Shown here: piece after piece, positions 26,537-57,496 of the stretch | Position numbering within the stretch: the stretch's first letter is position 1 | How the letters are laid out: every line of letters begins with the position of its first letter | Source: Carcharhinus longimanus | Lineage: Eukaryota | Direction of reading: 5' to 3' | Assembly: GCA_030264375.1 (NCBI GenBank) | Contig: JASCQW010000139.1 | Coordinates: 6,529,654-6,593,653, forward strand | DNA: 64,000 nt | The notes under the pieces: generated by a model | The model's database searches: none | Told to the model about the DNA's origin: nothing | What the model saw: the letters and a program-made list of their open reading frames with translations, nothing else | Position numbers and translations under genes: made by a program

Positions 26537-26869
<333 letters not shown>

Positions 26870-27227: not shown

Positions 27228-27801
<574 letters not shown>

Positions 27802-27837
27802 CTATTTAAAAAGGTAGTGTGAAATATCCATATTTCA

Positions 27838-28080
<243 letters not shown>

Positions 28081-29244: not shown

Positions 29245-29400
<156 letters not shown>

Positions 29401-30128: not shown

Positions 30129-30347
<219 letters not shown>

Positions 30348-30519
30348 TTAAAAGGTAAAAAAGAATCTCAAGGACAGTTCCAGGGCAAGCATTTCCACCC
30401 CACCAAACCCCTGAAACTTGAAGTGAAGCAAATATGGAATTTCAAAAATCAAAACGTATTTTTCATATTGAAGCCAGCTACAATGAACTTTAGGTCATCT
30501 TTACAGTGTGGTAAAATTT

Positions 30520-30780
30520 TAGTTGAAGGGTCTGTTGTTACAAGGAGACAAATTAAAAGTGAGGGGGGATAATTGGAGGAAAACCTCTACCCAGAAGACA
30601 GTGATGGTCTGGAATGCACTGCCTGGGAGGGTGGAAGAGGCAGGATGCCTCAAAAGTACCTGGATGAGTACTTACACACCATAACATTCAAGGCGATGGG
30701 CCAAGTGGGCAGGTCAGAGCATTTCATGTGTCGCTGCAGACTCAGTGGGCTGAAGGGCTCTTCTGCACTCTAGTATTGTG
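30520..30780 (+). mobile_element. CR1 LINE 3' end
   Basis: tggaatgcactgcctgggagggtgg...gggctgaagggc..ttctgcact. Confidence 0.65.
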
Positions 30781-31063
30781 AAATTCCCACTGAATAATAG
30801 TGGTTAGCTCAAATAGTTGCACACATCCTCAAGGCCAGAGTACAAATTTATAGACATTCCTTGTACAGGGACGTAGCTATATTGGTTACTTTCAAGAGGA
30901 CCATTTAACTATCCCATTTGCACCACAAGAATCATCCCTATGAAATGTTCCAAAAACAATGTTTTTTTTTTTAAAAAAGGTAAACTGCTGTTGAGTTCTT
31001 GCTATGCTCAAAATGGCTGCAACATTGGATGATACCTGTTCTTCACAAGCCCTAAACTGGCTA

Positions 31064-31462
<399 letters not shown>

Positions 31463-31966
31463 TCATACAAAAGCCTCACAAATAGGAATCAGTAGTGTAG
31501 TGTAAAGGCTTAGGACAAACCCTCAAAAACAAAAAAAAAGTGGTGGTAGAGGCAGGAACAGTCATTTGAATTCTCTACACTAGGGAGCAGTGAAGACTGG
31601 GTCACTGAATATACTTCAAGGTAAAAAGTTCTATTTACAAGGGTTTATAGGAAGACAGGAAAATAGAATTCAAGACACAGATCACCCATGTCGAATGGCA
31701 GTACAGAGACAACAATTGGTCTCCTGCTCATTTAATCCTCAGATGTCTAAACTAAAAATTTAGACTAGAATCAGATGGACTGCCAGGGATGGTGTTTGAC
31801 TGAAGTTGGACCAGTCTGGCACATTTGCTAATTTCAAAAGGGATTGATGGGCAGAGTGAGAAATCAGAAATCAAACTAGGTTTGTCCCAATTACCCAAGT
31901 CCTTCAGTGGCCCAGTTTGGAAAGTCTGTCACTGGTACTTACCATTTCACAACTGTTACAAATTTA

Positions 31967-32182
<216 letters not shown>

Positions 32183-32259
32183 CTATCAAAGTAAAAGATC
32201 ATTGTTAGTTGTAAATGGATGCATATTAGGACTGAATAATTTGAGAATGATCATTTAGA

Positions 32260-32523
32260 AACAGCAGTGCCAGGGATCTGGGTTTGAGTCTGGCCTTGGG
32301 TGACTAGTTTACATGTTCTCCATGTCTGTGGGTTTCCTCCAGGTGCTCTGGTGGTTTCCTCCTACAGTCCAAAAAGATGTTTGGTGGTGGTGGTGGAGAA
32401 ATTGGGCATGGTAAACTGCCTCTTAGTCTCAAAAGGAGATTAAGAGTTAATGGATTAGGATTGTGGTTGGTATAAGCTTGATGTATCAAAATGGCCTCCT
32501 TCTGCACTATAGGGATTCTATGA
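32260..32523 (+). mobile_element. HE1-type SINE
   Basis: V-domain gtgggtttcctccaggtgctctgg and tail cctccttctgcactatagggattctatga. Confidence 0.75.
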
Positions 32524-32806
32524 TGCTCAAAGCCTGTTACATGAATTAATGCAAAATCATTTATCCTTCCCCATTCTGGCTTGCAACTCCAGACCCCATA
32601 ACAAGGCTCAACTATCCTCTGCAATGGCCTAAGCTACACAAGGGCAGCTAGGAATGGGCAGATGCTGGCCTTGCCAGCAATGCCTACATAAAAACCAAGT
32701 TCAGCTTGTGGACATGGAAAATTACTGCCACCCCACCCCCCCCCAGAAATGTAACAAACCACCTGCCCAAGTTACAAAAGACAGAACCAAAACATTTCCA
32801 GTTCTA

Positions 32807-32947
<141 letters not shown>

Positions 32948-35151
32948 CTATGAAAACAATGGTTTAAAAAAAAAAAGGGTGTCAGTCTTGTGCATGAAAT
33001 GTATTTGAACGGATGTATAAACAGACTTCCTACAACTGCTCTGAATCTCCCTTTGACAGAACCAAGTGCCATATACATTCTCATAATGAGAAATGCTACC
33101 ACTTGATGTTTGGTCAAATGCACAGCCTTGATTGAATTTTAAATATTTTGATCTGACTTGCCAATTAAGACAAAACTACAGCAAAAGTAGCCATGTCTTT
33201 AGATGCATCCACAAGTGGTTTATTCAGGTATGGAATCTAGAAGATACTGATGTAGATCAGTACTTGATCTTTCACATAACCTACCAGCCTTTAAAACTAC
33301 AAACTCTTTAAAATCTACACATCATGATTGCGATGATAGTTCAGATGTTGAAAGATCCAAAAAAGAACTATTCACTAATCTCTTGCTGTGTGCACGTACA
33401 GAAAATATGACTCAAAAATTGCTGAGTGCAAACACTTTGGGCTGCACCAAGGCTCAAACCGAATGGATTGAGCTTTAGTTTATACACCAAAACTGGGTTG
33501 AATTTTAGTTTACATTCCTTTCAAGCATGAGCACACAGTTTGAGCAAAGAATGGGAAAAACAAGCTATGTGCCTGGGAGCAAGAACTACAAAACATTTCT
33601 AGTCTACTCAGCTGTCAAAATAGGTTGAATATCAAACAATGCTTAAATCTTCAATATCAATGCAACATGGCATATGTATTGCTTTGATTCATTAAGGGCC
33701 ATCTCAACACAAATTGGATTCATTTGAAACTCGGGATTAACCACCCTGGAATGTGGGACTTGAATACTAATCTTCATTCCCAAGATGTTATGAGATCTAG
33801 TGAAAACTTCATAGCAATTATTGGTTGAACACAACAAAGGTTAAAAACCCTACATCTACTACAGTAGTGATGGTTTTGAAGCTAGCAGTTACTGCAGGAA
33901 TAGCACTCTGGGATTGGGAAGCAGACAGTGCTCTGATTTATACTAGCTTTAATCCACAGTTTCAGCTCATTAAGCAAATTTACTCTCCTGAACAGATGGA
34001 CTCCAATAAATTCCATAATTTCTTCTTCAAAGCCTAGCAGCATTATTGCTGACACTTGCAACAGTGGAATAATGCTGGGGTCAGAATAGACCAAAGTGAG
34101 CTTTCACAACTTCAGCAGTTTTGCCCTACTCCCATTGTGAAACTAAGAGACCAACATCTGTACCTAAAACAAGGCCATACTGAAAGCACAGTGTTCAAAT
34201 TCCACTGCATCACATCCTGCTTTAGGTAAAAATGAACAAGTAACTTACTCCTGTAGTTCCAACACCACCACACAATGGCCCAAGTCATAAGGACATGTGC
34301 ACTGGTATCCAGTGAGCTGCATAATCTGCAATGGTTTGAGGCCTACCACCCATGGGGCAACTACTGAAAAGAACAGCTGTCTGCATTCCCCACAATTAAT
34401 GAGTTGCAGACTACCTTCCAAATTCATAGTTTAGCTTTTGCTAATGCCAAATGGAGATATCCATGTTAATTCAAGACTAGAGCAATTAAGTGGCCAACTC
34501 CCAACTTACTGCCACTTGTGATTGAAAGCTATGCAGATGTAGCTACATCTGCCACACTAGTCTTGTCTTAGCCTTTTGGCACAAGTACCCACCAAGAAAA
34601 CTACCAAATCTTAGTTCATGATTTGGCATGAAGCCAGATCAGTTCTAAAATCATTGTACTTGCACTCAGCTAGGAGCAAGGTAAAAGCAATTCTAACCAC
34701 ATCTCTCCACCTTGATATGCAAAGACACTAATTTACATCAAAAAGAGCAAGAATTTCCTTAATGTGAACCAAGCCACCATCCGTTAGTATGGGAGTTCAC
34801 AAGTCCAGAGCAAGATGAAAATCCTCTTCAACAGGCCCTAGCAAACAGTTACATTTCTATTTCGATCTTCACTTAAAGCAGACCAAACAACTTTAGAATG
34901 CACTTTACAACAGTGGCTTTCCTTGAAGTTGGGCTGATATCAGCCACATTTCCACAAGTTTTAGATTATATTCTGAGAAGTTACTACAAAATCAAAACAG
35001 CAAGATCATTTTAAGCTGGCTTTACAAATGATATTCTGCCAATGTCTTGCCATATCCAAGAGCACTGTCCTGCACAAATAGGATAGGATATAGTCTTATG
35101 GAAATAAGGGGGAGGGGATGGGGAGGAAAGGCCTGCGCTGCAAACATTTAC

Positions 35152-35163
35152 CTGGTACATGTC
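35152..35163 (-). CDS. CLTC: Candidate 12-nt alternative microexon GAC ATG TAC CAG (DMYQ)
   Basis: Minus strand reads ttttttgtgctgttccttatctggaatgagcag|GACATGTACCAG|gtaaat; open and frame-preserving in phase-0 intron 14. Confidence 0.4.
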
Positions 35164-36022
35164 CTGCTCATTCCAGATAAGGAACAGCACAAAAAATAAT
35201 AGCTTCCATCAACAGCTGGTCACTCAGTTCAACATTATACAAACCAATAAGCAGTTGAACAAGTTTAACATGGTCATTTAATGCACAGCTGACAGATTAA
35301 TTCAGCAAAACAGATTTAACCCATTTTATATTTTTGTAGAAGCTTTATGGATCTTCAGTTGAGAAAGCAGCTAGGATTTGGTTTTGTTTAAAGCCTATTT
35401 GCTGTTACTTATTACTTGGCACCCTGCAACTGCTTTCTTAAAATCAGTCCAATAACTGACATTAGACCATTATATTGCTAACATTATACTTCCAGTTTAG
35501 AGCAGCTAATTGAGACCAGCTTTGCTTTTCAATCATTTATCGCATCCCAGTTAAAAAGCTGCTTGCAGTCAAGCCTTTGTTTTTCACATGACAAATTGCA
35601 TATTGCAATTACAAGACAGTGAATTGTGTGGGGATTAACAGGTTTAGAAGCAGATATCCAGCTTAGTTATGGCCTTCACAAATTTGAGAATGTTCAAAGT
35701 TTGGACAGGCACCAAGTGCTCATTTAAGATGGAATGTGATGGAGTTTAGAACAAGATATTGCCATGTCCAATTACAGTATTGATGCCCTGTATTGCCCAC
35801 ACAACTGCCAGGAATAATCAGAAAGCAGTAATTACACATTTACATATATAGCTAATGATAGTAAAAATGCAGTTGTTTTCATGGCAAGAGCACAAGACAG
35901 CTTCCTTAAAAAAGTCACAGGAAAACTGATTGTCAGCTATTAATTAGTTTTGTATTTCTACCCAGACAGCTTAAAACTCTGCATTGCTTAAATATTTTAA
36001 GTACACTGGTATGTATAGTATA

Positions 36023-36483
<461 letters not shown>

Positions 36484-36879
36484 TTACAAACAAAGCAAAG
36501 TTGTTGTCACAGGGATAAAATGAGAATCTGTTTGGGTGAAGGTAGCCAGCAACATTCCTGGGTAAAGTCATGGAAAACCAATACCCCAATTATCTCATAG
36601 CCCTGCCTCATGAATTGCTACTGAAACAGCCTGACTAATTTCAAACATCACGCCAACCTCCATCCATTTAGTCAGGCTTCCAAAATCAAAGATGGCAACA
36701 AAGGAACAACTAGGACAACTAGCACTTGCTGCACCATTTAATGCAGTCCTTACACTTTCAGCTCCCAATGAAAAATTGGGATGGGCACTTGTGCCAAGAA
36801 TGACAAATGCATCTGTATACTGATGCTCGCATGAATTTAAGGATTTTTGTTGAATAGTGTGGCAGCTATTCAATCAAGC

Positions 36880-37432
36880 ATACTACCATTTAGAAAATTG
36901 TTTGATTGAGCAGATGCAGCACGGATTTGTTAAGGGGAAGTCATGTTTGACAAATTTATTGGATTTCTATGATGTGACTCGTGCAGTAGACAGGAGGAGA
37001 ACCGGTGGATGTGGCGTTTTTAGATTTCCAAAAAGGTGTTTGATAAAGGTGCCTCAAAGGTTGATACAGAAGGTTAGGGTGCACAGAGTTGGGGATAAGG
37101 TGTTAGCATGGATAGAGGATTGGTCATCTAAGAGGAAGCAGAGAGTTGGTATCAATGGGTGCTATTCTGGTTGGCAACTAGTGGAGTGCTGCAGGATTAG
37201 TGCTGGGGCCTCAACTATTTACCATTTATATAGATGATCTGGAGGAGGGGGCTGAGTGTAGGGTGACAAAATTTGCNNNNNNNNNNNNNNNNNNNNNNNN
37301 NNNNNNNNNNNNNNNNNNNNNNNNNNNNNNNNNNNNNNNNNNNNNNNNNNNNNNNNNNNNNNNNNNNNNNNNNNNNGGGGGTGGGCTCAAAGGGCTAGAT
37401 GGCTTACTCCTGCTCATATTTCTATGTTCTTA
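36880..37432 (+). mobile_element. CR1 LINE RT fragment plus 3' end
   Basis: QHGFVKGKSCLTNLLDFY...LAWIEDW...KQRVGING...LGPQLFTIYIDDL. Confidence 0.9.
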
Positions 37433-37992
37433 CTAGTTCAAACTTGTAAAAGACCCAAAAGACAATTCAAAGAATGAGGGGAACTGGTAGATTTGAGCTG
37501 CTTTCTCTTGAAAGCATTGGTGAGAAGAGGTAGGGGAGGATAGAGGAGTAGATCAGGAAGGCACAGTATGAGAGCTTGGAGATTTCAAATAGAAAAGGCA
37601 ACCAAAGCACAGCAGCTTATAAAGGGTAAGGATTTAGAATTTAAACAACCTAGGTCAGTAAGGACAGAATGACAATGATGAGTTGTGGAAATTTCTTACT
37701 GGGACATAGGATAGAAAGAACCTCTGAATAGTATGCAGTACACCATTATGTACTTGGAAAACAAGCAAGGTGCTTTATACAAAGATAGTGAGCCTGTTTG
37801 TTGCCATACCAACATTTGCAAAACTTTGATGAGTCTCTTGTCCAATTACTTCAAAAAGGATTGGAAAAAACAAGTACACTTTATGCTGTTTCAACATGCA
37901 CAAAATACTAAACTGCAAAAATGATCCTGCACAAAAATTTGTGATAGACAGGATGTGGCATCACCCATTCTTAGCTGGTTATGGATTATTTA

Positions 37993-38244
<252 letters not shown>

Positions 38245-38329
38245 TTACAATGGCAAAATGATTTTAGAATGTCAAAGCTAAAATAGTTTAAGATTAAGTG
38301 ACACGAGTTACATTACCAAATAGAATCTA

Positions 38330-38503
<174 letters not shown>

Positions 38504-38739
38504 CTAAAAACCAAAATCGATTTAATGTACCAGCTCAAGAGAAATAAAAGCTATATTGACACAAGTTGTTTTGCATCAGCATAAATGCTTACTTCAGGTG
38601 AAAATAAGCATTTCTATATTAAAAACAGTAAATATCAGCACAAGTAGCCAGGGAAATCTAATGAATATATTGAATGCAAATGATATTGCCAATTACCAGC
38701 TAATGGCATGTGTCTGACAAGGTTCACTCACTTGCCTGG

Positions 38740-39195
38740 GTTTGCAAAACCTCACTTACTGTACCTGTCTGGAGACAATACACATCTCTTTAAACTGTGA
38801 TCAGTGCTCCTTCCACTCATTGTCAGCCACTTCAGGTCTTGAACAGCAGGTTAGGTGTAAGGATTCGCATTCTAATCAGTAATCTCTAAACTGTNNNNNN
38901 NNNNNNNNNNNNNNNNNNNNNNNNNNNNNNNNNNNNNNNNNNNNNNNNNNNNNNNNNNNNNNNNNNNNNNNNNNNNNNNNNNNNNNNNNNNNNNGTCAGC
39001 CACTTCAGGTCTTGAACAGCAGGTTAGGTGTAAGGATTCGCATTCTAATCAGTAATCTCTAAACTGTCTGTACTTTATATGCTGTCTGAGGCCAGAACTC
39101 TCCATTCACCTGACAAAGGGGCTAACCCCGAAAGCTTGAGAGTCTATTATCAAATAAATAGGTTAGACTAAAACCTGGTGTTGTCAGACTTTTTA
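38740..39195 (+). mobile_element. Penelope-type element 3' part
   Basis: Ends in the same aaataaatagg..gactaaaacctggtgttgtcagactttt terminus as 36023-36265; contains a hammerhead-like core. Confidence 0.6.
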
Positions 39196-39577
39196 AACAA
39201 GGTTGTATAATACAAATGGCTGATATGTACACCATTCATGTGACCACTAGAGGGCTTGAAGTGACAACCACAAGTTGCATTGTAGTGGTACCAGCTGCAG
39301 AAAAACCATGAAGCAGCAGCCAGTTTGAGTCAAGAACAAGTTTAAAAATAAAGCACCTTAAAATTCTCTACAAATTCAAAAGGGTGATACTGAGCAAATA
39401 TCTTCAACTGAAAGGAGATCTATATAGTGATAGCATGAGAAATTTGTACAGATGAAAAACAGGTTTAGCTTAAATGGCTTGTGCTGTATCTATTTAGATG
39501 AATAGCCAGTATTGGTGTTTCGCTTTGAACACCCCTTTGTTAACTCCAACAGCATGTCACATTTTACACAACTTCCA

Positions 39578-39853
39578 TTGGCAGTGGTTAGCACTGCTGC
39601 CTCAGTGCCAGAGGCCCAAGTTCAATTCCAGCCATGGGTGAGTGTGGAGTTTGCATGGGTTTCCTTCAGGTGCTCCAGTTTTTCCCCAGTCCAAAGATAT
39701 GGGGGTTAGGTTGATTGGCCATGCTAAATAGACCTTTACTGTCAGGGCATTAGCAGGGCAAGTATCTTAAGGGGATAGGGCCTGGGTGGGATTGTGGTCA
39801 GTGCAGATTTGATGGGCCAAAAGGCCTCCTTCTGCACTGTGGGGATTGTATGA
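39578..39853 (+). mobile_element. HE1-type SINE
   Basis: Head gcagtggttagcactgctgcctc, V core and HE1 tail. Confidence 0.8.
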
Positions 39854-39949
39854 AGTACCACATTGTGGCAAGAAAATTGACTGGCTCAGACCTCATGTTT
39901 CCCATGCTATGTTGTTCTTTGTTCTTTAAATGGCAGGCCTATTAAGAGT

Positions 39950-40347
39950 ATAGAAAAGTACACAAGTCCTTGAAGGTGGCAGTACAGGTGGAGAAGGTGA
40001 AGGCAGCCGATGGTATGCTTGCCTTTTAGGGTGGGGTATAGAATATAAAGCTGGCATCTGATGTTGCCGTTGTAGATTGTTTGCCTGCATTTGGAGTACT
40101 GTGTCCAGTTCTGGTTACCTTACTACCAGAAGGACGTGGAGACCCTGGAGTGCAGAGGAGGTTTACCAGGATGTTGCCTGGTATAGAAGGACTGGGTTAT
40201 GAGGAAACATTGGGTAAACTGGGGCTCTTTTCCTTAGAAAGACGGAGATTAAGGGGGGATCTGATAGAGATGTATAAAATAATGAAGGGTATAGATAGAG
40301 TAAACAGTGGCAGGCTTTTTCCTAGATTGGAGACAAATATCACGAGG
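39950..40347 (+). mobile_element. CR1 LINE ORF2 C-terminal fragment
   Basis: VQRRFTRMLPG...LGLFSLERRRLRGDLIEMYKIMKG. Confidence 0.9.
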
Positions 40348-40447
40348 NNNNNNNNNNNNNNNNNNNNNNNNNNNNNNNNNNNNNNNNNNNNNNNNNNNNN
40401 NNNNNNNNNNNNNNNNNNNNNNNNNNNNNNNNNNNNNNNNNNNNNNN

Positions 40448-40880
40448 TTCCGGCACTTCCCCGGAATCCAGCGACGTTTGGAAAATAACCACCAAGGCAT
40501 CCACTATCACCTCCGCCATTTCTTGATTATTAACCTTGTCCCTAATTATTGTTTCTAAAATGCTTCCCCATCACTGAAGTTAAACTGATTGACCTGTAGA
40601 TGCTGGGCTTGTGACTCCATCCTTTTTTGAACAAGGGTATTTCGTTTGCGTTCTCCTGTCCTCTGGCACCACTCCGGGTCTGAAGAACTGAAATATTATG
40701 GCCAGTGTCTTTGCAATTTCCACTCTCAATTCCTTCAGTGTCCGTGGTTGCATAACATCTGGCCCTGGTACCTGAGCTATTTTAAGTACAGACAGCCGAT
40801 TCAATGCCACCTCCTTCCGAAAAACCTACTCTTTCGCCTTGACCTGGGTAGCATCTTCTTCCTTGGTAAAGACATGTAAA
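40448..40880 (-). mobile_element. CR1 LINE ORF2 fragments
   Basis: PGPD..PRTLKEL..EIAKTLAIIFQ...VPED. Confidence 0.75.
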
Positions 40881-40889
40881 CTAGCTATC

Positions 40890-41635
40890 TAAATACTATG
40901 GCTATAAGAGCAGGTAAGGGACTAAGAATCCTGTGGCAAGTCACTCGCTTCCTGACTCACAAAAGTCTTTCCACCATCCACAGGCACAAGCCAGGAGTAT
41001 GACAGAGTATTCTCCACTTGCCTGGATAAGTACAACTTCAACTAGACATAAATATTAACTCCCTTGAACAAGTGTAAACAAGAACAAAGAACAGTACAGC
41101 ACAGGAACAGACCCCTTCAGCTCACCAAACCTGCACAATAACAGCATTATACACCAGTTACAAGGTGCGTAGAAAATAGAAGTAGGTGTAGGCCGTTCAG
41201 CCCTTGGAGCCTGCTGATTATGGCTGATCATCAAAGTCAATACTTGATCCTGCATTCCCTCCATATCCCTTGATTCCTTAAGCCCCTAGATCTATATCAA
41301 ATTTCTTCTTGTAGCAACTCACCAAGTCTCCTTAGATAGCACCTCCCAAATCCACAACTACTACCAGCTAGAAGGACAAAAGCAGCTAACACCATACCTG
41401 GAAGTTTTTCTTCAAGCCACTTACCAACCTGACTTGGAAATATTTCACCATTCCTTCATTGTCACTGGGTCAAAATCCTGGAACTCTCTCCCTCTCAGCA
41501 CCATGAGTGTATCTACCTCAGGGACTGCAGTGGTTCAAGAATGCAATTCATCACCAGCTTAAAGGCAGTTATGAATGGGCAATAAATGCTGGGCTCGCCA
41601 GCAAGATCCACATTCAACAAAAGAATTTAAAAAAT
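40890..41635 (+). mobile_element. Decayed LINE 3' region and tail (CR1/L2 group) with nested antisense CR1 3' ends at about 41075-41310
   Basis: Tail homologous to 1-115; aacaagaacaaagaacagtacagcacagg is an inverted CR1 terminus. Confidence 0.6.
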
Positions 41636-41659
41636 TAATTTAATAACCTAGGTTGGATA

Positions 41660-41870
41660 CAATAATTACGAGGGGCCACGGGCTTAGCGTGAGGGGGGAT
41701 AAGGTATAACTCGGATGTTAGAGGGAGGTTTTTCACACAGAGGGTGGTGGGGGCCTGGAATGCATCGTCAAGTAGGGTGGTGGAGGCAGGCACACTAGGG
41801 TTGTTTAAGGCTTACTTGGACAGGCACATGAGCGGACTACAGATGGAGGGATACAGGAGACTTTTCTAAA
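41660..41870 (+). mobile_element. CR1 LINE 3' end
   Basis: TRGH...FFTQRVVGAWN-coding segment. Confidence 0.75.
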
Positions 41871-42164
41871 TAAAGATCAAGAGCTTTGGGACATCCCTGG
41901 GAATCAATTGATTCCTATGGACCTTCCAAAATATTTCATAGCTCACTTGCTTTGTGCTTCTGGGGATTCTGTAAATGTCTAAGTTTTGCATGTTTATTGA
42001 TGTCTTTGTTACTTATTAGGTGATTTGGTCCACTTTGTTGGCCAAGGGGCGTACACAGTGGGTCGTGCGATGGCTGCTCTTGGATGTGGCTTTGAAAGTT
42101 GCTTAGTGCTTCATGTCATTAGTGTATACTTAAACTGGACCATCTGACAAGCAACATGACAGCT

Positions 42165-42450
42165 CAGGTGACTATCACTTTGCTGTGCAGATACCTGGCT
42201 TTGGGCTGGTGTCTGTGGGGGTTTGCACATTCTCCGTGATTGTGTGGGTTTGCTCTGGCTTCCTCCCACATCCCAAAAATGTGCTCTTAGGCTGATTAGG
42301 GGCAATTTGTTACACCAAATTAGCCTTCCCTCAAATCTTCCCCAGTAGGTGTAGACAAAGGTCATGGGTAGAGGAGGGCACTCAAATGTTAAAATGGCAG
42401 TGAGAGAGTGTGTTGGGCTAAAGGGCCTGTTTCCCATGCTGTGTTGTTCT
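42165..42450 (+). mobile_element. V-SINE, decayed
   Basis: gtctgtgggggtttgcacattctcc...ttcctcccacatcccaaa. Confidence 0.6.
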
Positions 42451-42610
42451 TTAAAGTTATACAGCCCTTCAGACCAGATACCACAAACAATTAAATCCAT
42501 TCAGCTGGATCACTAGATAAAAAAGGACAAGGATATTGCCAACAGGGCAAGTGCAACTTTCAATTATACCACTCCCACCCAGAGAGTTAAAAACAGTTCT
42601 CCACAACCTA

Positions 42611-42883
<273 letters not shown>

Positions 42884-43668
42884 CTATTACCAGAAAAAGG
42901 GATGCACTTGAGGGCCAGTGTGTTTTCACCTTGTTTGACCAAGCCACCACAAAATGATACTTGATACCTGTCAGGCTCAACTCCCAAGGTTGAGACTGAT
43001 GTGCTAAAATCCTTTTGTAACAAAAGGACAATTCATAAGATGGGTAGACCCATCCTTCATCCGCATTCAGTTCTATTAAACCAAAAGCTGTATTTTCCCC
43101 CCCTTTTCAGCATGTACCAAATTTCCCTTTTGAATGTTACCAATTAATTGGCTTCCAACACCCTTCAAAGCACTACATTTCAGATAACTCAAATACTGCA
43201 AAAGTAGTGCCAAAAAAGGGCAAATGTACATTTTGTAAGGGTTCAAACAATCCAGAGCTAGTTCCACCACTTTTTCCTGGTATGAGCACCAATTGTGCCC
43301 CCCCCACTTCCAATACTTGGCATCCAATTCAGAATAGGAGGAACTTTCAGGCTCAGAGTCCACTTCTATTGGATTAATTTGTGGCATGGTCCCCTTATGT
43401 TAATTGGAAATTTGGTACTTAGTTTCCTTAGTGTATTAAAATTCAAGGTCCTCTTGTGAACAAGTCACATTAGTGAGCACTGCAGAATGATCAAAGTTCA
43501 GTCCATTAATTCAGGTTAACATTAAAATATATAGTGTTAAACATTCAAGTAATTTTAGACATTGAGATCAAAAGACATGGAAAGACATTCTTGCAATATA
43601 ACAAGGTTAACTGAAGTACAAGGGTTCTTTTCTGCATTGACTCACTTTCAAAGAGAAAATTCCCTTAC

Positions 43669-43791
43669 CTGGGTGATATCTGCAAGAGGTTCTTCATCCT
43701 GAACCAACATCTGAGCAAACTGAAGTCCTTGATCAGGACCAACTCTCATTACGTTCCTCAGCAGAAAGATCCAGTCTGGCGAGTAACCAAC
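43669..43791 (-). CDS. CLTC: CLTC exon 10 (123 nt; VGYSPDW...ADITQ)
   Basis: gttcag acceptor, gtaagg donor. Confidence 0.96.
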
Positions 43792-44119
43792 CTGAACAAG
43801 GATGGGCCACAGTTGAGCAATAAACAAATACACACCTACAACAGTCAACTATCTAGCTACATCAATTACAAGCCTACAGCTTTAAATGGATTCTTGAGAA
43901 AAAAGGCAGAACTTCTGCATCACACAAATCTTATAAACACATTTTAGATGATGTGGCTTAACTTTGATAAGAGCCACTTTTTGTAGCTGATCCCAATACA
44001 AATCTAAAATTCTACATTTTGATAAAGGTTGCTGAGACTCAGACTCACTAAAGCTTTAGATTAAAGGCAAACAGACACACATAGCAATGTCATTTTCAGT
44101 TTGCAATCAAGACATTGCA

Positions 44120-44850
44120 AGAATCAATGCTTGGGCATCAGTCAAGTGCAATACAATCTATAATTAATGACTTGGATGAGGGAAACAGTGTGATGTATCC
44201 AAGTTTAGTTTGTGGACAAAAATGAAGTGGGAAAGTGGCAAGGAGGACACGAGGCAGAAAAATTGTAATATTTGAACATGGCAGATGGTATAGAAGAATT
44301 CAGAAACTGAAATTATCCACTAATAGAAAAACCTGAATTTAAGTGCACTAGTAAATGCAGACAGGCAGAGGAATGGGAGGACTCTTGCACATGAAATCAA
44401 ATATGAAAATGCAATAAGAAAATCAAATTGTCCATCACTGTCAGGGGCTGAGTACAAAAAGCACAAGTTTTAACCCCACAAAAGCACCATATAGTTTAGC
44501 TCAAGTAATGAGGAGCACAGATTCACTGGATTAATCCCCAAATTATGACTACCTTACTGTACTAACAAGGACATCATGGGAAACAAATCTAGTTTTAAAG
44601 TAGATTGCACTGGCCAAAACATTAACTAGCAGTCTCAGGACAAGAGATTCATTGGAAACTGAGCTGAAATTTAAGGGTTGTGAAATTTTCTACCCAGAAG
44701 GGATGCAGATGCTCAGTCATCAACCCTCAAACTAAGTAGATTTACCATCAAGGGCTCTGGGACTAGGATGGGAAAAGAGATAGATGAGCCAGCCATTCTT
44801 TAAATGAAGCTGACTGGTAGGGCTGTGGCCCATTCCTGCCTGTGTCCCAG
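44120..44850 (+). mobile_element. Old CR1 LINE remnant
   Basis: acaatctataattaatgacttggatgag...tccaagttt; heavily eroded. Confidence 0.5.
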
Positions 44851-45059
44851 GAGCAGTGAAGGATTATGCACAGCTCTGAAAATTAGTTTTAGGTTGAAGG
44901 CAGTTAGGACTTGGAGTTGAAGGACCTTCCAACTAGTTCAACAGTACTCCCAGAAAGAACAGAACTGAATGAATAAAGGAGATCGGTCAAATCCTTAGAA
45001 GGAAAAGCAGATTTAATAAAGTTTATAATTGTCTCCTGTCCAAGCTGAACAAATAGTTA

Positions 45060-45230
<171 letters not shown>

Positions 45231-46149
45231 CTACAAGAACAAAAACAGACCCATTAGATCACAAACTACTAAAAAGTTCAGCTTACTAGTGCACGACCAC
45301 TTATAAAATCAGGAGAACATTCTTACCCAACTGTGACACAGGCACGTGAAAATAAGGGGGAATTGTTACATGGAGCCACAGCTCTGGAGTTGATTTACAA
45401 ACCAACTACAATTTAAATTGAGTACTAATTCTTGGCAAGTTTAATTCTGCTAAAGCCTCTGATTCAGCATTTTTCCTATCATTAGGCAAAAAAGTTGAAT
45501 GTTATTAGGTCTGATACAATGTGCTAGCTACAAAAATTAATGGCCTACAATTTAGATTTGGTAAATATGGTTGACTAATACTAGGACAGTAGGAAGTCAG
45601 TTAGTTCACACTTGAGGCAAGACATCAAGTTTGAACAAAGAGGCAGGTATAATAGAAAACTGCAATCATTTCAGAAACAATGAATTAATATTTCCACTCA
45701 TTTGGAAAAATCTACTCAACTTCAAATGGAAGTAGTCAAATCAGGATTGTGCCACTTAGGAACAGTAAGATTATGGTGGTCCTACACTTCATAGAGGCTA
45801 CATGGCAGATAAAGCAAGCTTGGCAAGGTGTTGCCATGCATCACCTGTGCATGCTGCATCCATCTGTTGGTGGAGGGTGATTAGTCCAGTTAATCAAGTA
45901 ACCCATTTGGTCCTGGGTTAACTTGCATTAAAACTCCATTCAGAAGCACAACATTCCAGCCTTGTAGATGGAGGCTCTAAAGTGCCAAGTTATGAATTAC
46001 ATAGTTCAAGGTAGTAGCTTTCAGAGCAACACAGCCCATCACATCAGCTATTTAACAATGTCATTAACCAACAGAAGCTTCTAGTGAAGAGCAGATCTGG
46101 GCAGCCTTCCAACTTTACTGTAAAAAAAAAATGCAACTTGGAAGAATTG

Positions 46150-46440
46150 GATACCTGGAATTCATGCTAACAGCATGCTGCAGGGAGAGGATGGCACTGT
46201 CACTGGCTTAAACTCTGCCACAGTAAATGGTGAATTAAAAGCTCATGATTGTTGACTGACATTAAAATCTATCTAGTTCACCAACATCCTTTAGGATAGG
46301 AAATATGCCACCCTTACCTGATCTGGCCTACGTTTGACTCCCCAAATTGCCCTCTGAAATGACCAGCAGGCTGCTCAATACAAGGGTAATTATGGGTGGG
46401 CAATAAATGCAGGCCCAGCCAGTGCCCAAATTGAATGCAT
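46150..46440 (+). mobile_element. SINE-like element sharing the gggcaataaatgc LINE tail
   Basis: tttagg..aggaaat.tgcc.cccttacctg.tctggcctac core; similar copy at about 32560-32690. Confidence 0.5.
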
Positions 46441-46468
46441 GACACAGTAAAGCCTGTAGGACAAATTA

Positions 46469-46792
<324 letters not shown>

Positions 46793-47139
46793 TTAAGTCA
46801 AAGCAAAGTAAACTGAATGAAGTCCACATATTGACATTATGGAAAACTACTGAACAAGACAATAGTCAAAAATGTCTACACTTCATTATATCTGCCATTA
46901 AACAGATTTAGTTCTTACACATGATTGAAGCAGAGTCAAATCAGTATCACAATGACTAAGGCTGCCACTGAAGTGGTTCCAAACTACTTGTGCATTAAAC
47001 TGGAAATATCTTCTGCAATTTTCAAATGAGAAAAATATGTACAAAGCTTCAATTTGTTAATGCACCTGTTGCATTTAACAAACCATGGATCCACTTTTTG
47101 GCAAAAGCAAACTATTTCATCTCAACTTAATTTTTACTA

Positions 47140-47427
<288 letters not shown>

Positions 47428-50400
47428 TTAGTAAAAAACTTTAATGTTGAACTGATATGAAACTTGAGCTTTATGGGGGAACTACCAGTCCAATGCAATA
47501 TTTTAACATTGCCAAAGCAATTTATTGAAATGCAGAGTTCTACAAATATCTTTAGTGGCAAAATGACAAATCATTCTGGACAGCTTAGGCACTGGTGTCT
47601 TTTCACAACAGCATTGTACTGGTACAAGCAAGGTTGATGATACCTGGAGCAAAGTTTGGATGTTTGATTTGTTCATAAGCCCTTGGGATTAAAACTTTAA
47701 AAACCTTGTTCACCAGCTTAGTGTTTCCTCAAATCACTTATGATGCCATCTCATTTCAAATTTTACCTGTTCAAATCACCCAAGTTATTCAATATTCACA
47801 TTGAATGTGGTTTTTAAAAGCAAGGCCAACTGGATGGCAAATATTGATCTGGTTAATCCATCACAAGATGTTCTAGATGTAATCAAATCCAGAAATTATG
47901 TTGCCTGCAGTGCTCAACTCAAAATACCCAGTATTTGATACAAGAATGAGAGGGTTTCTCAGGTGTTAGTGCCCAGTCAGGTCACCATAGTACAAAGTCC
48001 TTGAAGGGTGCAGAGGTGATTCACCAGGATGGCTCTGTGATCAGGCATTTGAGTTATAAAGCATTGGTCAAAGAGGCCATGGTTGTCTTCCTTGAAGCAA
48101 AGGAGATTTGATACCAGATTGACAGGTTTGAATAAGCAAAAAATTCTTAGCTGAAGGGCTTGAGCCAAGAGGCAGAATTGTGGGAAAACGAAAATGAAAT
48201 TGCCTGGAGCTCATGGCCCATAGGGGTGGTGGAAACAGGACAGTGATTGAAAAAATAGACCAGCACTTCAAAATAAGCTTTTAGGGAATCTGGGACTGAC
48301 TTGGGTTTATGTCATTTACAGCACAGCAGTACATTTGTAAACTGTTGATACAAATCAACTCCAATCCTTCAATAATCAGCCTACTCATTACAACACAACT
48401 TAGCAACTAGAATGGGAAGAATAATGAGTTCACAAGTTTTTAAATGCTGAAATGGACCCAGGCTAGGTCTAGTGTGCACTGGCTGATTCATATTGTTGAC
48501 TGGGTACAAAAGGTCCCAAGGACAGCCATTGCAGATGTAATATCATCCATAGCTACAACATGAATTTACTTTGAAAAAAAAAGAGATTGTAGGATTCAGG
48601 ATAGTAATTTTTCCAACTATTTAAATCTATGCTATATAGTTATGATATGCTTGCATTTTTTTAATGCCAGGATATAAAATTCAAATCATGAAGGAAGTTC
48701 AAGGTCACAGCAAAGCAAATACTAATCTAATCTGTCAACATAGACAAACTCCAGCCTTGATCCTAGCCCATTTCTGGTGCTCCCTACACAGGAGATAAGA
48801 GTGGCAATTAGCTCAGACAACACCAAAATTTGCAAGTAACAGCATATGTGGTAGGGTTTATACTGGTGGAAAATGGCTTGTAAGCAAATATCAATACATT
48901 TTCTCTTGCATAAATAGATCTGTAATTTGTGGAATGGGCAATTAACTGTAACAAAATGTTGATTTCAAATACAAACATGCTCAAAAACATGGCCTTTTAC
49001 AGTTAGACATTCAAAAGGGAAGGGGGTTGCATTACCAATCCACACATGCAATGAAATAGCAAGATCAATGTTACAGGCACCATGGCAGTGCAGTTATGCA
49101 CATGCAAGAAATTCCAGGCTGCACAGATTGATGCAAGACAACTCAACCTGGAAGGTGAGGTTGAAATTAAATATCTAAAACCATAGTTATTTGCAACTAA
49201 ATTAGGAGCAGCAGTAGACCATTCAGCCTCAGTCTGCTGTCATTTGGTAGGTCATGGCTAATGCCATTGTGGCCTCACTTTGCTGTCTCCCCTCCTTAAC
49301 CTATGCAGACTGACATTAACAAACAAGTCAAATGCTGCCTCTAGACCAAATTTTAGAAATTCTCCATCTTAAATATGAGTCATCCTTATTTTAAAACTCT
49401 CCTAGCCCTAATGCCCCATGGGCAAGACAACCTCTAAGCACCTACCCTGCCCAGCTCCTATTGTAATGGATATAGGCCTACTTGTCCTTCAAGTGATCCT
49501 TCTGAACTGCTTCTAATGCAATTATATCCCAAGTAAGATCAAAACAGTACGCAGCAGCCTCACCACATTATTGCAAGGAGTATTAACATTGCATTCACCT
49601 TCTGTATGCTGAACAAGATTTGTGTACCAAAACATTCAAATCCCTCTACTGCAATCTCTTCATTTCAACTAGATAAAGTTGAAAATTCCAGTTCTTCAAC
49701 ACAAAAATCTAGGCTGACTGTCTCAGATGAGACATGATACAAGTCTCTTTCCTTTCAGGTTGGTGCAAGAGATCTGGCCCAATTTGTCTTTTCAAAAATT
49801 CTTTGAAAATTAAGCAAAGTGCCTTGGGATAGAAAATTGTATTTCATTTTGAATAATACACTAACAAAAAAAAAAAGAATATTCCCCCACTGTCTGCCAA
49901 AAGGAACACTGAACAAAGATGACCTTTGGTTAAATACAATGGCTGCCAACACTGATCACATTTCCACATTAAAAATTAATGTTGCTATAACTGGCAAGTG
50001 ATGGATCAATTGACTGATTCTTGTATTAACACTTCCTCTTCACAAACCTGCTGCCACTGCCACCTGAACTTTGCTCCAAAACTGCCCTACATGTTAGTTC
50101 TATGTATTTCAAAACCATGAAAGGTCACTGACTCACCACATGCCATAGAAAATAGGTCAAATCAGCCAAACAGTCCACTACCTGCTCAAAATTTAAAAAT
50201 GGAAACCCAGAAGCACATTTATAATTTATGAAGCAATAGGCTGGCTAACTGAGCAGGGCACTTTATGCCTCTAAATTACACCAATGTAGCTTTATTCAGA
50301 AGATAAAGTTCAACTTTAAAAAGGTATTAAGGCACTTTAGTGATGCAATGAAAACATGCTGTGCCAAATTTGAGGGGTTGCTAAAACTCAGTTGAAGATT

Positions 50401-50580
50401 TAAGATTGTGGAATCAGGTTTCAGCTTTGTGGGCAGGGAAGGGACTGGGATATACAGGTGTTTGTGGCAAGGGCTTGCCACCAATGTCAAACTGGTTGAA
50501 CAGGCTCACCTTAGACACACTAACAGGGCAAGCTGAGCCACATCGGCCTGGGAGCTGACATTTCTATGAAGGACCCACTA

Positions 50581-50877
<297 letters not shown>

Positions 50878-51509
50878 TCAGGGAAGAAAAAAGGTTCATT
50901 AAGTTACTGCATACCACTCAGACAAAACTAATTTTTGTAGGCACTAAAAAAGTAGACTAGTCTTCAAATTGTGCAATGATTTGTTTCACCCAAATTTTAG
51001 CTAGGTTGTGCATACAGGACCTCTGGAGGAACTGTCCCAGACCACAAGAACCAATTAGTCAGTGTGCTGTAGGAATATATTGGTGGAAAGGGATAAGGCA
51101 GCCAGTATCAAAATCTTGTGCAAGGTAGAAGAATGCAGGTGTTAGTGTACAAACAGTAAATACAATGTTGATAAGGAAAGGAAATTCTGTACACATTTGA
51201 CAGAATTGTGGTACCATTAGTTTGGAATTCAAGTGCACTGAAGCTAATATTTACTAACAGCCAATGCCATGTTCCATGAATGAATTAAACCAATTTAATG
51301 TCAGATACCATTTTGGCACACAAGCAGCCAACATGCACAGGTATGTACCATGCAAGTGCTGAAGGAACAGAAGGCTCAGCCATTTTAATTCTTCATGTTG
51401 ATCTATTTTGTGCATAGAAAATCTTAATGTTAATCCAACCTGCAGGTGGCAAGAGTACCTTCAGTTTCCCAAACCTGCACAATGGCTTGGATATTATTCT
51501 ACATTAACA

Positions 51510-52015
51510 TAGGGATCTGAAGTGTGAAGGTCCATATAGTTCCACAAGTGGCAACAAAGGCAGCCAAGGTGATTAAGCATATAGCATGCTCGCCTTCATT
51601 TACCAGTGCATTGAGTAGGGAGTTGGGAAATCATGTTGCATACAGGCCACGGGGAGTATTGTGTCCAATTCTGGTCACCACACTAGAGGAATGTGGAAGC
51701 TTTGGAGAGAATGTGCGTACTTAGCTTTCTCCCCCACCCTAGAATGGAAGTTCCAATTACAAAAAGGAGGCACAGGTTCAAAGTGAGGGGGGGTGGGGAG
51801 AGAATGTTTTACTGCAGACTGATGGGTGCCTGGAATGCACTGCCAGGGGTTGCAGTGGAAAAACAGGCAGATTAGCAATGTTTGAGGCATCTGAATGGAT
51901 ACATGAATAGGGAGGGGTTAGAGTGATGCAAACCAAGTAATGGCAGATTTTGAGTTAAGGCACCATGATCAGCACAGGCTTGGAGGGCTGAAGGGCCTGT
52001 TCTGTACTTCATTCC
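51510..52015 (+). mobile_element. CR1 LINE 3' fragment with internal deletion
   Basis: ggagtattgtgtccaattctggtcacca...tgcctggaatgcactgcc...gggctgaagggcctgttctgt. Confidence 0.7.
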
Positions 52016-52064
52016 AGAACACAGTTGAAGAAACTAGATAAAAAGTGGCATAGTACTCAATTAC

Positions 52065-52178
52065 CTGCATTGCAACAGGGAAGTCATTTTGTGCTTCTGG
52101 TGGGAAAAAGACATCCACTGCCTTTTTGGCAAAAGGCTGGTTCCCTGTAGGAGGAGTACCCACTTCGATAATGTGAAG
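52065..52178 (-). CDS. CLTC: CLTC exon 5 (114 nt; [10 protein letters not shown]...PVAMQ)
   Basis: ttctag acceptor, gtaatt donor. Confidence 0.96.
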
Positions 52179-52870
52179 CTAGAAGAAAACCAGACAGGAG
52201 TATACATACAGGTAACAGAATCACAAATCAAGTTCATTAAATACTGGAGTTAGCATTATACTAGATTCAAACCATGTTGGCTCATTGAGATTAATTACTG
52301 CAGAGTCAAGTACTAACTGAAAGAAACTGGGTTATGTTTTTCATTGGTTGTGTTCAGTTGGAAATAAAACAAAGTCACAGTTACACAAGTACAAATGTAG
52401 TCACAGCACAAGTTACTTCAGGCTTGGAAGATTTATGGCTAACCTGAGTCAGAAATATTAGGCAGTTTTATGCACTCAGCTGTTAAATGGTAAAATACGG
52501 AACTAGAAACATTCCAAACCTCCTGTGGCTATTGCAGGCACTATGGATCAATGGGCTAGAAATAGAAAACTTCAAATCTGTTACTGGAGCTGAAGGACAA
52601 GTCCACAGAACCCTAGTGCAGAAGGCCATTGTGTCTGCACAAACTCTGAAAGAACACTCTACAACTCTTGTTCCCTGTTTGTTTCTTTCTTCCCTTCCTC
52701 CTCCCCCCACCACCCTGTCATGGTGCTGCCCTCATTCATGGCTTCTACTCAGTCCACAGAACTGAACAATCAGTGCTTCTAGGGTCAGAAAGTGAAAGAA
52801 TGGCATGGGTATTAGTGCCACCCCCACACCCCACTGGTGTTTGCAAACCACATTTGACAAAATCACCTTA

Positions 52871-53170
<300 letters not shown>

Positions 53171-53631
53171 TTAGAGGAACCTAAAGCTCTTGTGCTTTCT
53201 TCTCCAGTTTGGGAGCAAAAAAAAGGATGCCAAAGATGCATTAAGCCCAGTTGGTGCACAGCTGCCACAATTTTTTTTTTTAAATGGTGAATTTCAAAAA
53301 ATAATTGTAACCCCAAAAGCAATTGTGGGTAGTTCAGCTACTTCTGCAGTTAAACAGCAAGCACAAGGCCAGCTCTCAACTGTAGTACATTTGCCCTCTG
53401 GCAGGATGTAGCCACACCTGTTTACTCCCTGCCCTTCCTCAACCCCACCAGTATCTTTGTACAGCATTAAGGCAATGCTTAGAGAAACCAGCAATTGTTG
53501 AATGGGGTATAAATGCCAAAGATGTAATGAGGGACACTATGCCACCACATAGCCCCAAAATAAGCAGTGGGACACAGTTGACACCTTAAGCCAACATCCA
53601 CATGCAAGCAATATAGGAAAAACTTTACTCA

Positions 53632-54012
<381 letters not shown>

Positions 54013-55268
54013 TCAATCCTCCCCTTAGACTTTTAGATAGCAGGCCAGTAAAGCTCACTTGCAGGTTTCCCTTCTTAAAATGGTGTAATAGTAGTAGATT
54101 TGATGCCCTACAATTTAACCAAGTGATTGTATAGCTTGAACAAACATTTGTAATTTCTTACTGAATTGCAAATGTTAAAAATCAAGTTAATTTGAGTCAG
54201 TCAAGAAACTAATCACAGGACTACTTGTCCAGTTGATACTAGGTATAAGCCAGAGCAATGCAGTATCTGTCTATAGTTGTTTTGTAAAAAGATAACTTTT
54301 TACAAGATTGCAGTACATGTGAATGGTAGCAGGTCTGAACCAAACAGCATTCATTTGTATGCGTTTCTGGAGCACAACACAGCACTCAAAAGGATGGGAA
54401 CATCTACAACTAGCACTCAATGAGATTAAAGTTTTCCCACTTGTAACAAATAATTGGTGGTGTTCTGTGGCTATGAGAATTTTTGAAAACACTACAATCT
54501 AAGCCAAGCATTTTGCTGAACTGCATTTAAGTTTTCTTGGTGCAAAAGCTCATCCACAATTCACTACAAGGTTGGGTCAAAGTGTTGAGTGCCTAAAGAC
54601 ACTTAACAGGGATCAGAATAAAAAAGGTACACTAGTAGACTCAAACCAACTTTTCCTATCGAGCCTGACAAGTGAAGACTGAGAAAAAAATTGTTAAACT
54701 CTTGGATTTATGTACAGGGGAAAAACCCAACTGCTTAGTGCTTGTTCCCATCCCAAATATCCAGTTGTACACAACACTACATAGAATTCAAAATGCAAAA
54801 ATTCAGGCTCATGGTTGTTCTGATCCAGTTCATAATGTGCAATTTGCATTCCCTCACCCTGTTTCAGAATTCAGACCTATGGAGACAAAGAATTGTGCAT
54901 TGCAAGCTGTGGGGATGTAACCAGTGTTATAATCAGCACAAGCTAAAAATTGATGAAGATGCCTGACATTACCAGGACTCGGTTGTATTTTTAAATTACC
55001 CCCAAGCTGCTAGGAACCAGAAAGGTAACTCTTCATACTCAGCTATTCATAAAGAGGCCTCAAGCCTTCACGTAGGTGGTTGAAGCACAAGAATATCAAA
55101 TCAGTACTGACAAAGAAAAACACCAAAATGTTCAGGCTTGTCAGTTTAATTCATAGGGCCCTTCAATTTTTAAATAAAGGAACAGTTTAGTCTTCCAGTA
55201 CAACACCTGGAAACCCAACAGTTTATAAACTGGACCAGAATCATGTGTCTAGATTTAAAGTAACTCAC

Positions 55269-55271
55269 CAT
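55269..55271 (-). CDS. CLTC: Candidate 3-nt alternative microexon ATG (ALK-D-AGK)
   Basis: Minus strand reads tttgcatttctttactgctttctttgtataagcag|ATG|gtgagt; frame-preserving in a phase-1 intron. Confidence 0.6.
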
Positions 55272-56856
55272 CTGCTTATACAAAGAAAGCAGTAAAGAAA
55301 TGCAAAGTAATTGAATCAGTAAAACAAGCTCCAGATATTAAGCGTCACAAAAAGCTATAATAAAAAGTTAACCTTTTGCAGGCTGCCTGGAGATTTAAAT
55401 CTCCAACTGCTTTGTGAACAGATGCAAGATAAAGCAGTCACTGCATTTCACTAGTAGACTTAATTTCATACCTAGCTGGTGAAAAATTCTTGAATACATA
55501 TGTACGCAAGTTTGGAGCAATTATGCATTTACACAAAATAGACATCCAGGGAATAGGTAGGGGAAGCTAAGTGAATAGCTAAAGCAAAGCTTTTTTAAAA
55601 TAGCTTTAAAAATAAAGTCCTGATGTAAATCAGCACTCCTGCTGAAGGAAGAAAGTTTTTTTCCACAAATTAGGGTTCATGGGTTTTGCAGCTCAATTGT
55701 GCATTTAAAATAATTCAGCTGTCAGAAATAGAGGGTTTTTTTTTTTAAAAACTTAAGTTTACCAAGTGATAAATTTAAATCTGCCCAAGATGAGTGCAGC
55801 TTTTATTCTGATCATATGGCAAGACTATATCTTGTGTCTAGATGGGATAGGGAGAATCCTATTTACTTTTAGGACTTCCAGGTTACAGCATCAAATTAGT
55901 TTGCAAGGCTAAAGTAGTACTTAGGATTTCTGTAATTTGGAAGTGGCACACCATACATCACCCCAGTTTATTTTGCAAGATGGTTCCAACTAGAAGAAAC
56001 ATTTGTACACATCACTGCATTCACATGTTATTAGCTCACTGAAAGTTAATGTTGTACTACCACTGCATCCACTAAATACACTACTGAGGCTACTTTCAAT
56101 GAGCTAACTACATTTACACAGTATGCAAAGGAACCTCCAAGAACAGGGAAGGAGATCATTTGTCATTTTCCCTTTTACATTGTGATGGAGCAGACTAACA
56201 GGATTATCCTATGACACCAAGTGTTCCTTCACTAGGGAGCACAGGTATCTTGAGATTAGCTTTTTCATTCAAAATGTGTTCCTGGCAAAGTTGCCATTCA
56301 GTACCCACCCTTCAAGGGAGACAGAACCAATAGCAGTTTAAGTACCAACCACATTGTGAAACTAGTTGCGCACAAGCCAGACCAGTTAACAGTGAGGTTT
56401 TTTCAAGATTCCAGTTATGAAACCCAGGATCTAAAGCTTCCTGTGTGGGTCACCAGTTTAAAGGTTAATAGGTCTCCCATTTAAGTTAGAAGTTGAGGTT
56501 CATGTCCCTGGGAAGATGGTGAATATTAAGTGGATAGATTCTTGACTAAGGGAGTCAAAGATTACCAGGGGTAAGAAAGTGAACTAAAACCACAATGACC
56601 ACCTTAATGAAAATGGGAGAACAAGCTGAGCAGTCAAATGCCCTAATCCTGCTTCATATGAATGCTAAGATTGTTCATGTCCTCAAGTGCATGCACTGGG
56701 ACAATATTCTAAATTTGTTTTCAGTCTTTTGCCAAGTAATGGAAATTTCCAATTAAAAAGTTAAGATAATTCAATAAATTTAGTGTGGTTTAAGTCTAGT
56801 GCGAACTGGAAGTTTAATAAATACACATTCTCAGCTCATTGACCAAAATGGTAGAC

Positions 56857-56930
56857 TAAGTAGTCTCACAACACCATGTTGTAAGGCTTCTTACTGTGTT
56901 TACCCCAGTCCAATATCAGCACCTCTACAT
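56857..56930. mobile_element. Collapsed Penelope-type insertion (74 bp) with 13-bp TSD
   Basis: CAAAATGGTAGAC at 56844-56856 and 56931-56943; internal short inversion and ttactgtgtttaccccagtcc terminus. Confidence 0.65.
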
Positions 56931-57288
56931 CAAAATGGTAGACAGGAGTTGATGGATAGAGATGGAGGATGCGTTTAGACACCAAATTAAAATCTTTGAG
57001 ATGGAGTTTATTTCAAGTGTTACTTCCTAGATGCTTCCAGCCAAAGGTGCCTTGCTCTTCATTTTTACTTTAATCAGCTTGGTTCCATGTGCATCCAACC
57101 ATTGAAAGGCATGCACTTGCTTTAGTCAAAGTGGACAAGCTCATGAAGGAAACCATTTAGTTGAATTGCAATGCAGTGACAAGGCTGAGTCTGCACAAAC
57201 TTGTATTTTAAAGACCAAAAGAAAAACCCATCTAAACCAAATACAATACCCAATGAAAAAACTAAAAACATTATGAACTCATTCTTAC

Positions 57289-57496
57289 CTTTTAATGCAA
57301 TAACCTTGCTAGCTGGGTTCATAATAGCACTATCAGCAGAGATTGGACGGCGAATGGGATTGTTGGGTTCATTCATATCAATGATGACCACCTGGGCTTG
57401 CTCACCAACTTTCTCCCGAATGCAAATGAATTTGTCAGACTCCATTGTTAGAGTGCTGAACCCAATATTTGCAGGATTAATGCCCAGGTTTTGGAG
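57289..57496 (-). CDS. CLTC: CLTC exon 2 (208 nt; [12 protein letters not shown]...KVIALK)
   Basis: tttcag acceptor, G|gtaaga donor; terminal-domain sequence. Confidence 0.97.

Follow-up and report, generated by a model that had tools for sequence, protein, structure and literature searches.

Ciampi et al. (PMC9303857 / bioRxiv 10.1101/2021.09.08.459463) described HsaEX0015816, a highly retina-specific and conserved 3-nt microexon of CLTC. It adds an Asp after K83 and before A84, within the clathrin-box groove, and in their account likely affects adaptor binding. According to their tables (PMC9303857), the human exon is included at 57.82% in retina, 0.05% in other tissues and 1.11% in neural samples, with corresponding values of 63.29, 0.25 and 6.49% in mouse and 58.17, 0 and 0.01% in chicken. 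In zebrafish eyes at 5 dpf, inclusion is 72.5% in the wild type vs. 34.69% in the srrm3 mutant for cltca and 86.74% vs. 48.32% for cltcb, so that about half of it remains in mutant eyes. Over-expression of SRRM4 raised inclusion of the human exon by 2.9-34.7 points across seven cell lines, while SRRM3 alone added 2.45 points in HEK293 and MSI1 added 0 in two lines (PMC9303857).

Two further bodies of work frame the comparison. For microexons regulated by SRRM3/4, a UGC between the branch point and the AG is found in 74-79% of targets, and it is neither strictly required nor proof of SRRM3/4 control (bioRxiv 10.1101/2024.09.17.613571). On the protein side, clathrin-box site 1 comprises I80, T87, Q89, F91, K96 and K98, with a pocket at L82 (PMC8805674).

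A 3-nt element in intron 2 of CLTC

The window, the whole 64-kb stretch of DNA analysed here, contains most of a CLTC gene. Its coding exons from 57496 to 13625 give 1660 stop-free codons that are 95.2% identical to mammalian CLTC (P0033); exon 1 was not located within the 64 kb. We placed the gene with a quick tree (maximum likelihood, 31 rows), which included no named cartilaginous fish and carried SH-aLRT support without bootstrap. The window gene fell inside the 13-row CLTC group (SH-aLRT 97) and not with CLTCL1, as sister of the other 12 CLTC rows (SH-aLRT 95), 11 of which come from bony vertebrates. This placement makes a cartilaginous fish the likely host. Inspection by eye of the open reading frames in 1-13700 revealed no recognisable neighbour gene for synteny, just LINE-like fragments. 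Fragments resembling what we take to be LINE reverse-transcriptase sequence lie at 2443-2925, 4066-4609 and 36854-37234. The end of exon 19 at 29246 (minus strand) has a donor and last codon that look atypical, with the lowest donor score (-9.1); it adjoins a run of N, and the sequence beside this gap may be in error.

A first-pass annotation of this DNA had proposed that a 3-nt microexon adds one Asp beside clathrin-box site 1, and its sequence, frame and position were confirmed. The element lies in phase-1 intron 2, which is 3355 nt long. The last G of exon 2 joins the AT of the microexon to form GAT (Asp), and the G of the microexon passes to the Ala codon. In alignments with clathrin chains of solved structure, exon 2 covers residues 15-83, which puts the insertion point at K83/A84. 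In-silico splicing yielded ALK-AGK when the element is skipped, ALK-D-AGK with 3 nt and ALK-AD-AGK with 6 nt, with no stop in any of them. The interval 55269-55274 given in the annotation corresponds to the 6-nt form, whereas the 3-nt exon itself is the shorter segment listed in Table 1. All of the seven site-1 residues (I80, L82, T87, Q89, F91, K96 and K98) are present in the window translation.

Table 1. Positions of CLTC features, microexon signals and microexon candidates in the window
Feature	Position	Strand	Remark
Host gene CLTC (CHC17)	13625..57496	minus	31 constitutive coding exons in the window
CLTC exon 2, 5' flank of the microexon	57289..57496	minus	residues 15-83 plus one base
CLTC exon 3, 3' flank of the microexon	53665..53933	minus	codes T87, Q89, F91, K96, K98
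TACTGAT, branch-point-like	55321-55315	minus	putative branch A at 55316 (-45); consensus match only
Second TGC, at -33	55302..55304	minus	TGC at -34 in L023; none there in L001
TGCTTTCT block from -20	55284..55291	minus	8 invariant columns across window, L001 and L023
Tandem AG (AAG), further upstream	55276-55275	minus	6-nt exon possible; not conserved
Acceptor AG (CAG) of the 3-nt exon	55273-55272	minus	invariant in window, L001 and L023
3-nt microexon ATG	55271-55269	minus	also L001:2863-2865 (ATG) and L023:810-812 (ACG)
Donor GTGAGT	55268-55263	minus	GTGAGTT invariant in window, L001 and L023
12-nt exon candidate (DMYQ)	35163-35152	minus	intron 14, between NFLK and EAKL; rank 4 of 1108
21-nt exon (VDEIKKK)	19819-19799	minus	top of 1108 candidates

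The local signals that the annotation had listed (TACTGAT, two TGC, AAG-CAG and GTGAGT) are all present, with the TGC motifs starting at -20 (55291) and -33 (55304) relative to the 3-nt exon, and the stretch from -59 to -5 is free of AG. The pyrimidine tract, described there as long, proved moderate, with a C+T content of 0.74-0.80 depending on the span counted; the microexon itself failed our preset tract filter (C+T of at least 0.8 over 25 nt). The intron has a single AG-AYG-GTRAG in its 3355 nt, a count reached by 19 of 2000 dinucleotide shuffles, while the looser AG-NNN-GTRAG is within chance, being matched by 26.5% of 2000 shuffles. Using a splice-site matrix derived from the sites of the window itself, we scored 1108 frame-preserving candidates of 3-27 nt, among which the 3-nt exon ranked 19th and the 6-nt form fifth. 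Because these ranks are unremarkable, the case for the microexon rests on conservation, and on that footing we hold the 3-nt element to be almost certainly a genuine exon.

Conservation in introns and proteins

We scanned metagenomes with exon 2 as the query and recovered 80 loci, of which 36 span the intron, 20 are intronless at this point and 24 stop before exon 3. One of them, L001, is a tetrapod-type CLTC (closest to P0029 and P0033) that carries AG-ATG-GTGAGTT. When its whole intron was aligned with that of the window, the best local match (55297-55261) fell on the microexon with a score of 48, which none of 200 shuffles equalled (shuffle maximum 41), and defined a conserved island of 37 nt centred on the microexon. 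A second locus, L023, is closest to the teleost CLTCL1-group proteins P0103 and P0086 and carries AG-ACG-GTGAGTT, encoding Asp by the synonymous codon GAC; its best alignment with the window intron is also on the microexon, but is weak, with 18 of 200 shuffles matching the score. Invariant across the three sequences are TGCTTTCT near -20, the AG, A.G and GTGAGTT, and all three have a TGC near the acceptor (at -20 in the window, -19 in L001 and -20 in L023). Conservation of the intron flanks was judged on these comparisons of the window with L001 and L023. The annotation had named the lack of a conserved ag-ATG-gt in orthologous introns among its refuting conditions; L001 has ATG at this place and L023 has ACG.

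Among 35 further complete introns from more distant loci (32,888 bases), one AG-A.G-GTRA match was rejected for its purine-rich context. In three distant loci (L065, L066 and L079) the intron at K83/A84 opens with GC instead of GT, and an intron at this position is common to many non-vertebrate-like loci.

At the protein level, 120 matches were examined at K83/A84; 10 have one acidic insert, 70 lack it and 40 are uninformative. The insert is Asp in eight proteins and Glu in two: six teleost proteins read DAAK, confirming the teleost ALKDAAKTLQ isoforms mentioned in the annotation, two read DAGK (one of them from a lungfish) and two from lamprey read EAGK. The lamprey is represented by three isoforms (P0117-P0119), two with Glu and the third without an insert. 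Another 115 proteins from a second search, for the most part non-vertebrate or without a name, brought no additional insertion. The combined set of 235 proteins includes 156 that cross the junction, and 10 have the one-residue insert.

In the tree, insert-bearing rows occur in both the CLTC group (P0057, P0058, P0061, P0062 and P0066) and the CLTCL1 group (P0086 and P0083). A turtle model named CLTCL1 (P0053) runs on as ALK-DGEL, which would fit exon 2 plus AYG followed by read-through into GTGAG. The microexon is thus seen in CLTCL1-type (CHC22) sequences as well (L023:810-812, P0086 and P0083, with turtle P0053 by its read-through pattern). Since the CLTC/CLTCL1 duplication has been dated (bioRxiv 10.1101/307264) to a time after jawless fish had branched off, the presence of the insert in CLTC, CLTCL1 and lamprey suggests that the microexon is likely older than the duplication. 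We lean towards a broader scenario, in which the acidic insert predates both jawed vertebrates and the CLTC/CLTCL1 duplication and, paired with a 12-nt microexon, formed a 'photoreceptor clathrin' of the early vertebrate eye with altered adaptor choice, the same switch being retained in CHC22.

Regulation and predicted effect on the clathrin-box groove

The window exon shows features of the SRRM3/4 class, namely its length (3 nt, for a class of 3-27 nt) and UGC motifs at -20 and -33. The conserved TGC at -20 is likely the SRRM3/4 UGC enhancer. The downstream intron was also inspected for the UAG-rich sequence typical of MSI1 targets, which was not found (1 TAG in 200 nt, 2.87 expected). SRRM3/4-type regulation, as the annotation had suggested, agrees with the published responses of the human and zebrafish orthologues, and control of the window microexon by SRRM3/4 is highly probable. 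Weighing against it are the inclusion left in srrm3-mutant zebrafish eyes and the small effect of SRRM3 alone in HEK293. An exon of 3 nt would most likely escape ordinary exon definition and, as established for the class, would be skipped unless SRRM3/4 act at the conserved UGC. By extension from other species, we propose that most tissues skip the window exon and that its inclusion is largely a matter of photoreceptors.

The tissue range is the point at which another reading fares best. The exon may be genuine and broadly neural or neuro-endocrine in this fish, as in zebrafish, with the strict retina bias arising later, in amniotes. Zebrafish heads at 24 hpf already include it at 24.91% (cltca) and 51.17% (cltcb), and the cltca and cltcb exons are missing from the zebrafish retina-specific sheet (PMC9303857); the Asp in 6 of the 120 protein matches, all teleost models, likewise suggests common inclusion in fish. 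However, zebrafish inclusion climbs to 72-87% as the eye matures, and the retina bias holds in three amniotes in the published tables. We consider a broadly neural exon possible, with the balance tilted against it. The label 'probably neural' in the annotation needs correcting for human, mouse and chicken, in which the exon is retina-enriched and neural inclusion is low, although zebrafish has the wider pattern; because of this enrichment, brain RNA-seq would be the wrong first choice.

Under the mainly photoreceptor reading, inclusion would put Asp beside A84, at the edge of site 1 where a strand gives way to a turn, and the predicted outcome is weaker or re-tuned binding of adaptors in the clathrin-box groove. 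A84 contacts the clathrin-box peptide of AP2B1 in PDB 5M5R (Ciampi et al., bioRxiv 10.1101/2021.09.08.459463). Clathrin boxes terminate in D or E (PMC8805674), and weaker or altered binding is therefore predicted for an acidic insert. Endocytosis persists when terminal-domain sites 1-3 are mutated together (PMC8805674); given this redundancy, a shift in adaptor choice is likelier than an on/off switch. Our literature search, which lacked most subscription papers, returned no binding measurement for the Asp form, and it turned up no published test of whether a single acidic residue alters the set of adaptors recruited by photoreceptor clathrin. AlphaFold models were obtained for a protein with the Asp (P0083; mean pLDDT 56.6, with residues 66-98 below 50) and one without it (P0023; mean pLDDT 60.4, pTM 0.41). 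An apparent loss of strands in the model with Asp was set aside, as the models are too poor and the two proteins differ elsewhere too.

The exon could instead be spliced in without much consequence for clathrin-box binding, its acidic residue sitting in a surface turn, with the A and G kept for splicing or with another partner affected. Residues 80-83 are given as EEET in the published table (PMC9303857), that is, a strand end entering a turn; the split codon must begin with G, which leaves just five residues to choose from; and the endocytosis that survives joint mutation of sites 1-3 points the same way. Yet the residue is acidic throughout, encoded by GAT in the window and L001 and by GAC in L023 and appearing as Glu in lamprey, and A84 touches the AP2B1 peptide. 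We regard an insert of little effect as rather unlikely.

A third reading concerns the product itself. If the upstream AG were frequently used in this species, a two-residue Ala-Asp isoform would be a major product. The 6-nt form keeps the frame and scores above the 3-nt exon with the window-trained matrix (13.1 vs. 10.7). Against this, the upstream AG is present in the window alone and is missing from L001 and L023, and the two-residue form occurs in none of the 156 junction-spanning proteins. AAG acceptors are, moreover, generally weaker than CAG. No publication combining NAGNAG acceptors with 3-nt microexons was found in our literature search. The annotation had offered ALK-D-AGK and ALK-AD-AGK as alternatives; both are in frame, but the AD form is without support in these loci and proteins, and it is very improbable as a major product. 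That the element arose by chance or is a dead motif of the intron that this species never splices in has next to no standing, for although AG-NNN-GTRAG arises by chance in about a quarter of shuffled introns of equal size, the Asp-coding pattern does so far more rarely, the 37-nt island is shared with a tetrapod-type intron and the published event sits at the same codon.

We thus favour, with fair confidence in the reading as a whole, an orthologous CLTC microexon that would be skipped mostly, be included in photoreceptors through SRRM3/4 and the UGC, and add an Asp predicted to re-tune adaptor binding.

Other microexons in the window and comparison with known systems

The scored candidates include likely counterparts of two other regulated CLTC exons. 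In mouse, a 12-nt Cltc exon is included at 47% in rods, and its validation primers translate to residues 755 and 782 (PMC6952364); intron 14 is the sole intron between these residues in the window gene. The 12-nt candidate in this intron has the donor GTAAAT and a TGC at -26, and is one of two such 12-nt candidates there. It was unconfirmed by homologues, as none of 58 junction-spanning proteins has a four-residue insert. From its intron and length, it is likely the orthologue of the second CLTC retina microexon, HsaEX0015815 / MmuEX0011806. The 21-nt exon agrees in length and position with a seven-residue insert of homologues and likely corresponds to exon 31 of CLTC, known for its regulation in muscle (PMC13676984).

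A 24-nt in-frame candidate in intron 18 (29490-29467, minus strand) ranked third of 1108 and may be due to chance. Intron 18 is the intron where lamprey has four extra residues: P0117-P0119 all carry them at about position 973, where PLIDQ and VVQ meet at an exon boundary, and they may represent a lamprey microexon.

Judged by its length, position and residue, the window microexon is the orthologue of human HsaEX0015816, and so an already published event. The core is accordingly not new, since the exon has been published along with the effect proposed for it. What is novel here is modest: we found no mention of the likely cartilaginous-fish copy, the CLTCL1-type copies or the lamprey Glu form. 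The words 'shark' and 'lamprey' are absent from the main text of Ciampi et al. (PMC9303857), and their Figure S3 may list these species. With a cartilaginous fish as host, the microexon would date back at least to the jawed-vertebrate ancestor, and the CLTCL1 and lamprey forms place its origin deeper still. The natural variants (Asp, Glu and possibly Ala-Asp) provide a ready series for adaptor-recruitment experiments on clathrin.

The closest system is the published retina microexon (HsaEX0015816, MmuEX0011805, GgaEX1065990, and DreEX0022256 in cltca and DreEX0022266 in cltcb), with which the window exon shares the gene, the 3-nt length, the Asp at K83/A84, the frame and conserved intron flanks. 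The published rows for mouse, chicken and zebrafish give coordinates only (PMC9303857); from the gene, the length and the teleost Asp proteins, we infer that these events fall at the same codon. The window copy differs from the published event by its extra upstream AG and its likely cartilaginous-fish lineage, which lies outside the four profiled species. With the neural microexons controlled by SRRM3/4 (Bonnal et al., bioRxiv 10.1101/2024.09.17.613571) it shares a UGC before the AG, and its GTGAGT donor and putative distant branch point would fit their pattern, but unlike them, amniote orthologues of the CLTC exon are hardly included in neural samples outside the retina. The other CLTC microexons, the 12-nt HsaEX0015815 / MmuEX0011806 of retina and the 21-nt exon 31 of muscle (PMC13676984), belong to the same gene, preserve the frame and are tissue-regulated, and both have candidates in the window. 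Those two alter the leg and the part that precedes the C-terminal tail, whereas the 3-nt microexon would alter the terminal domain.
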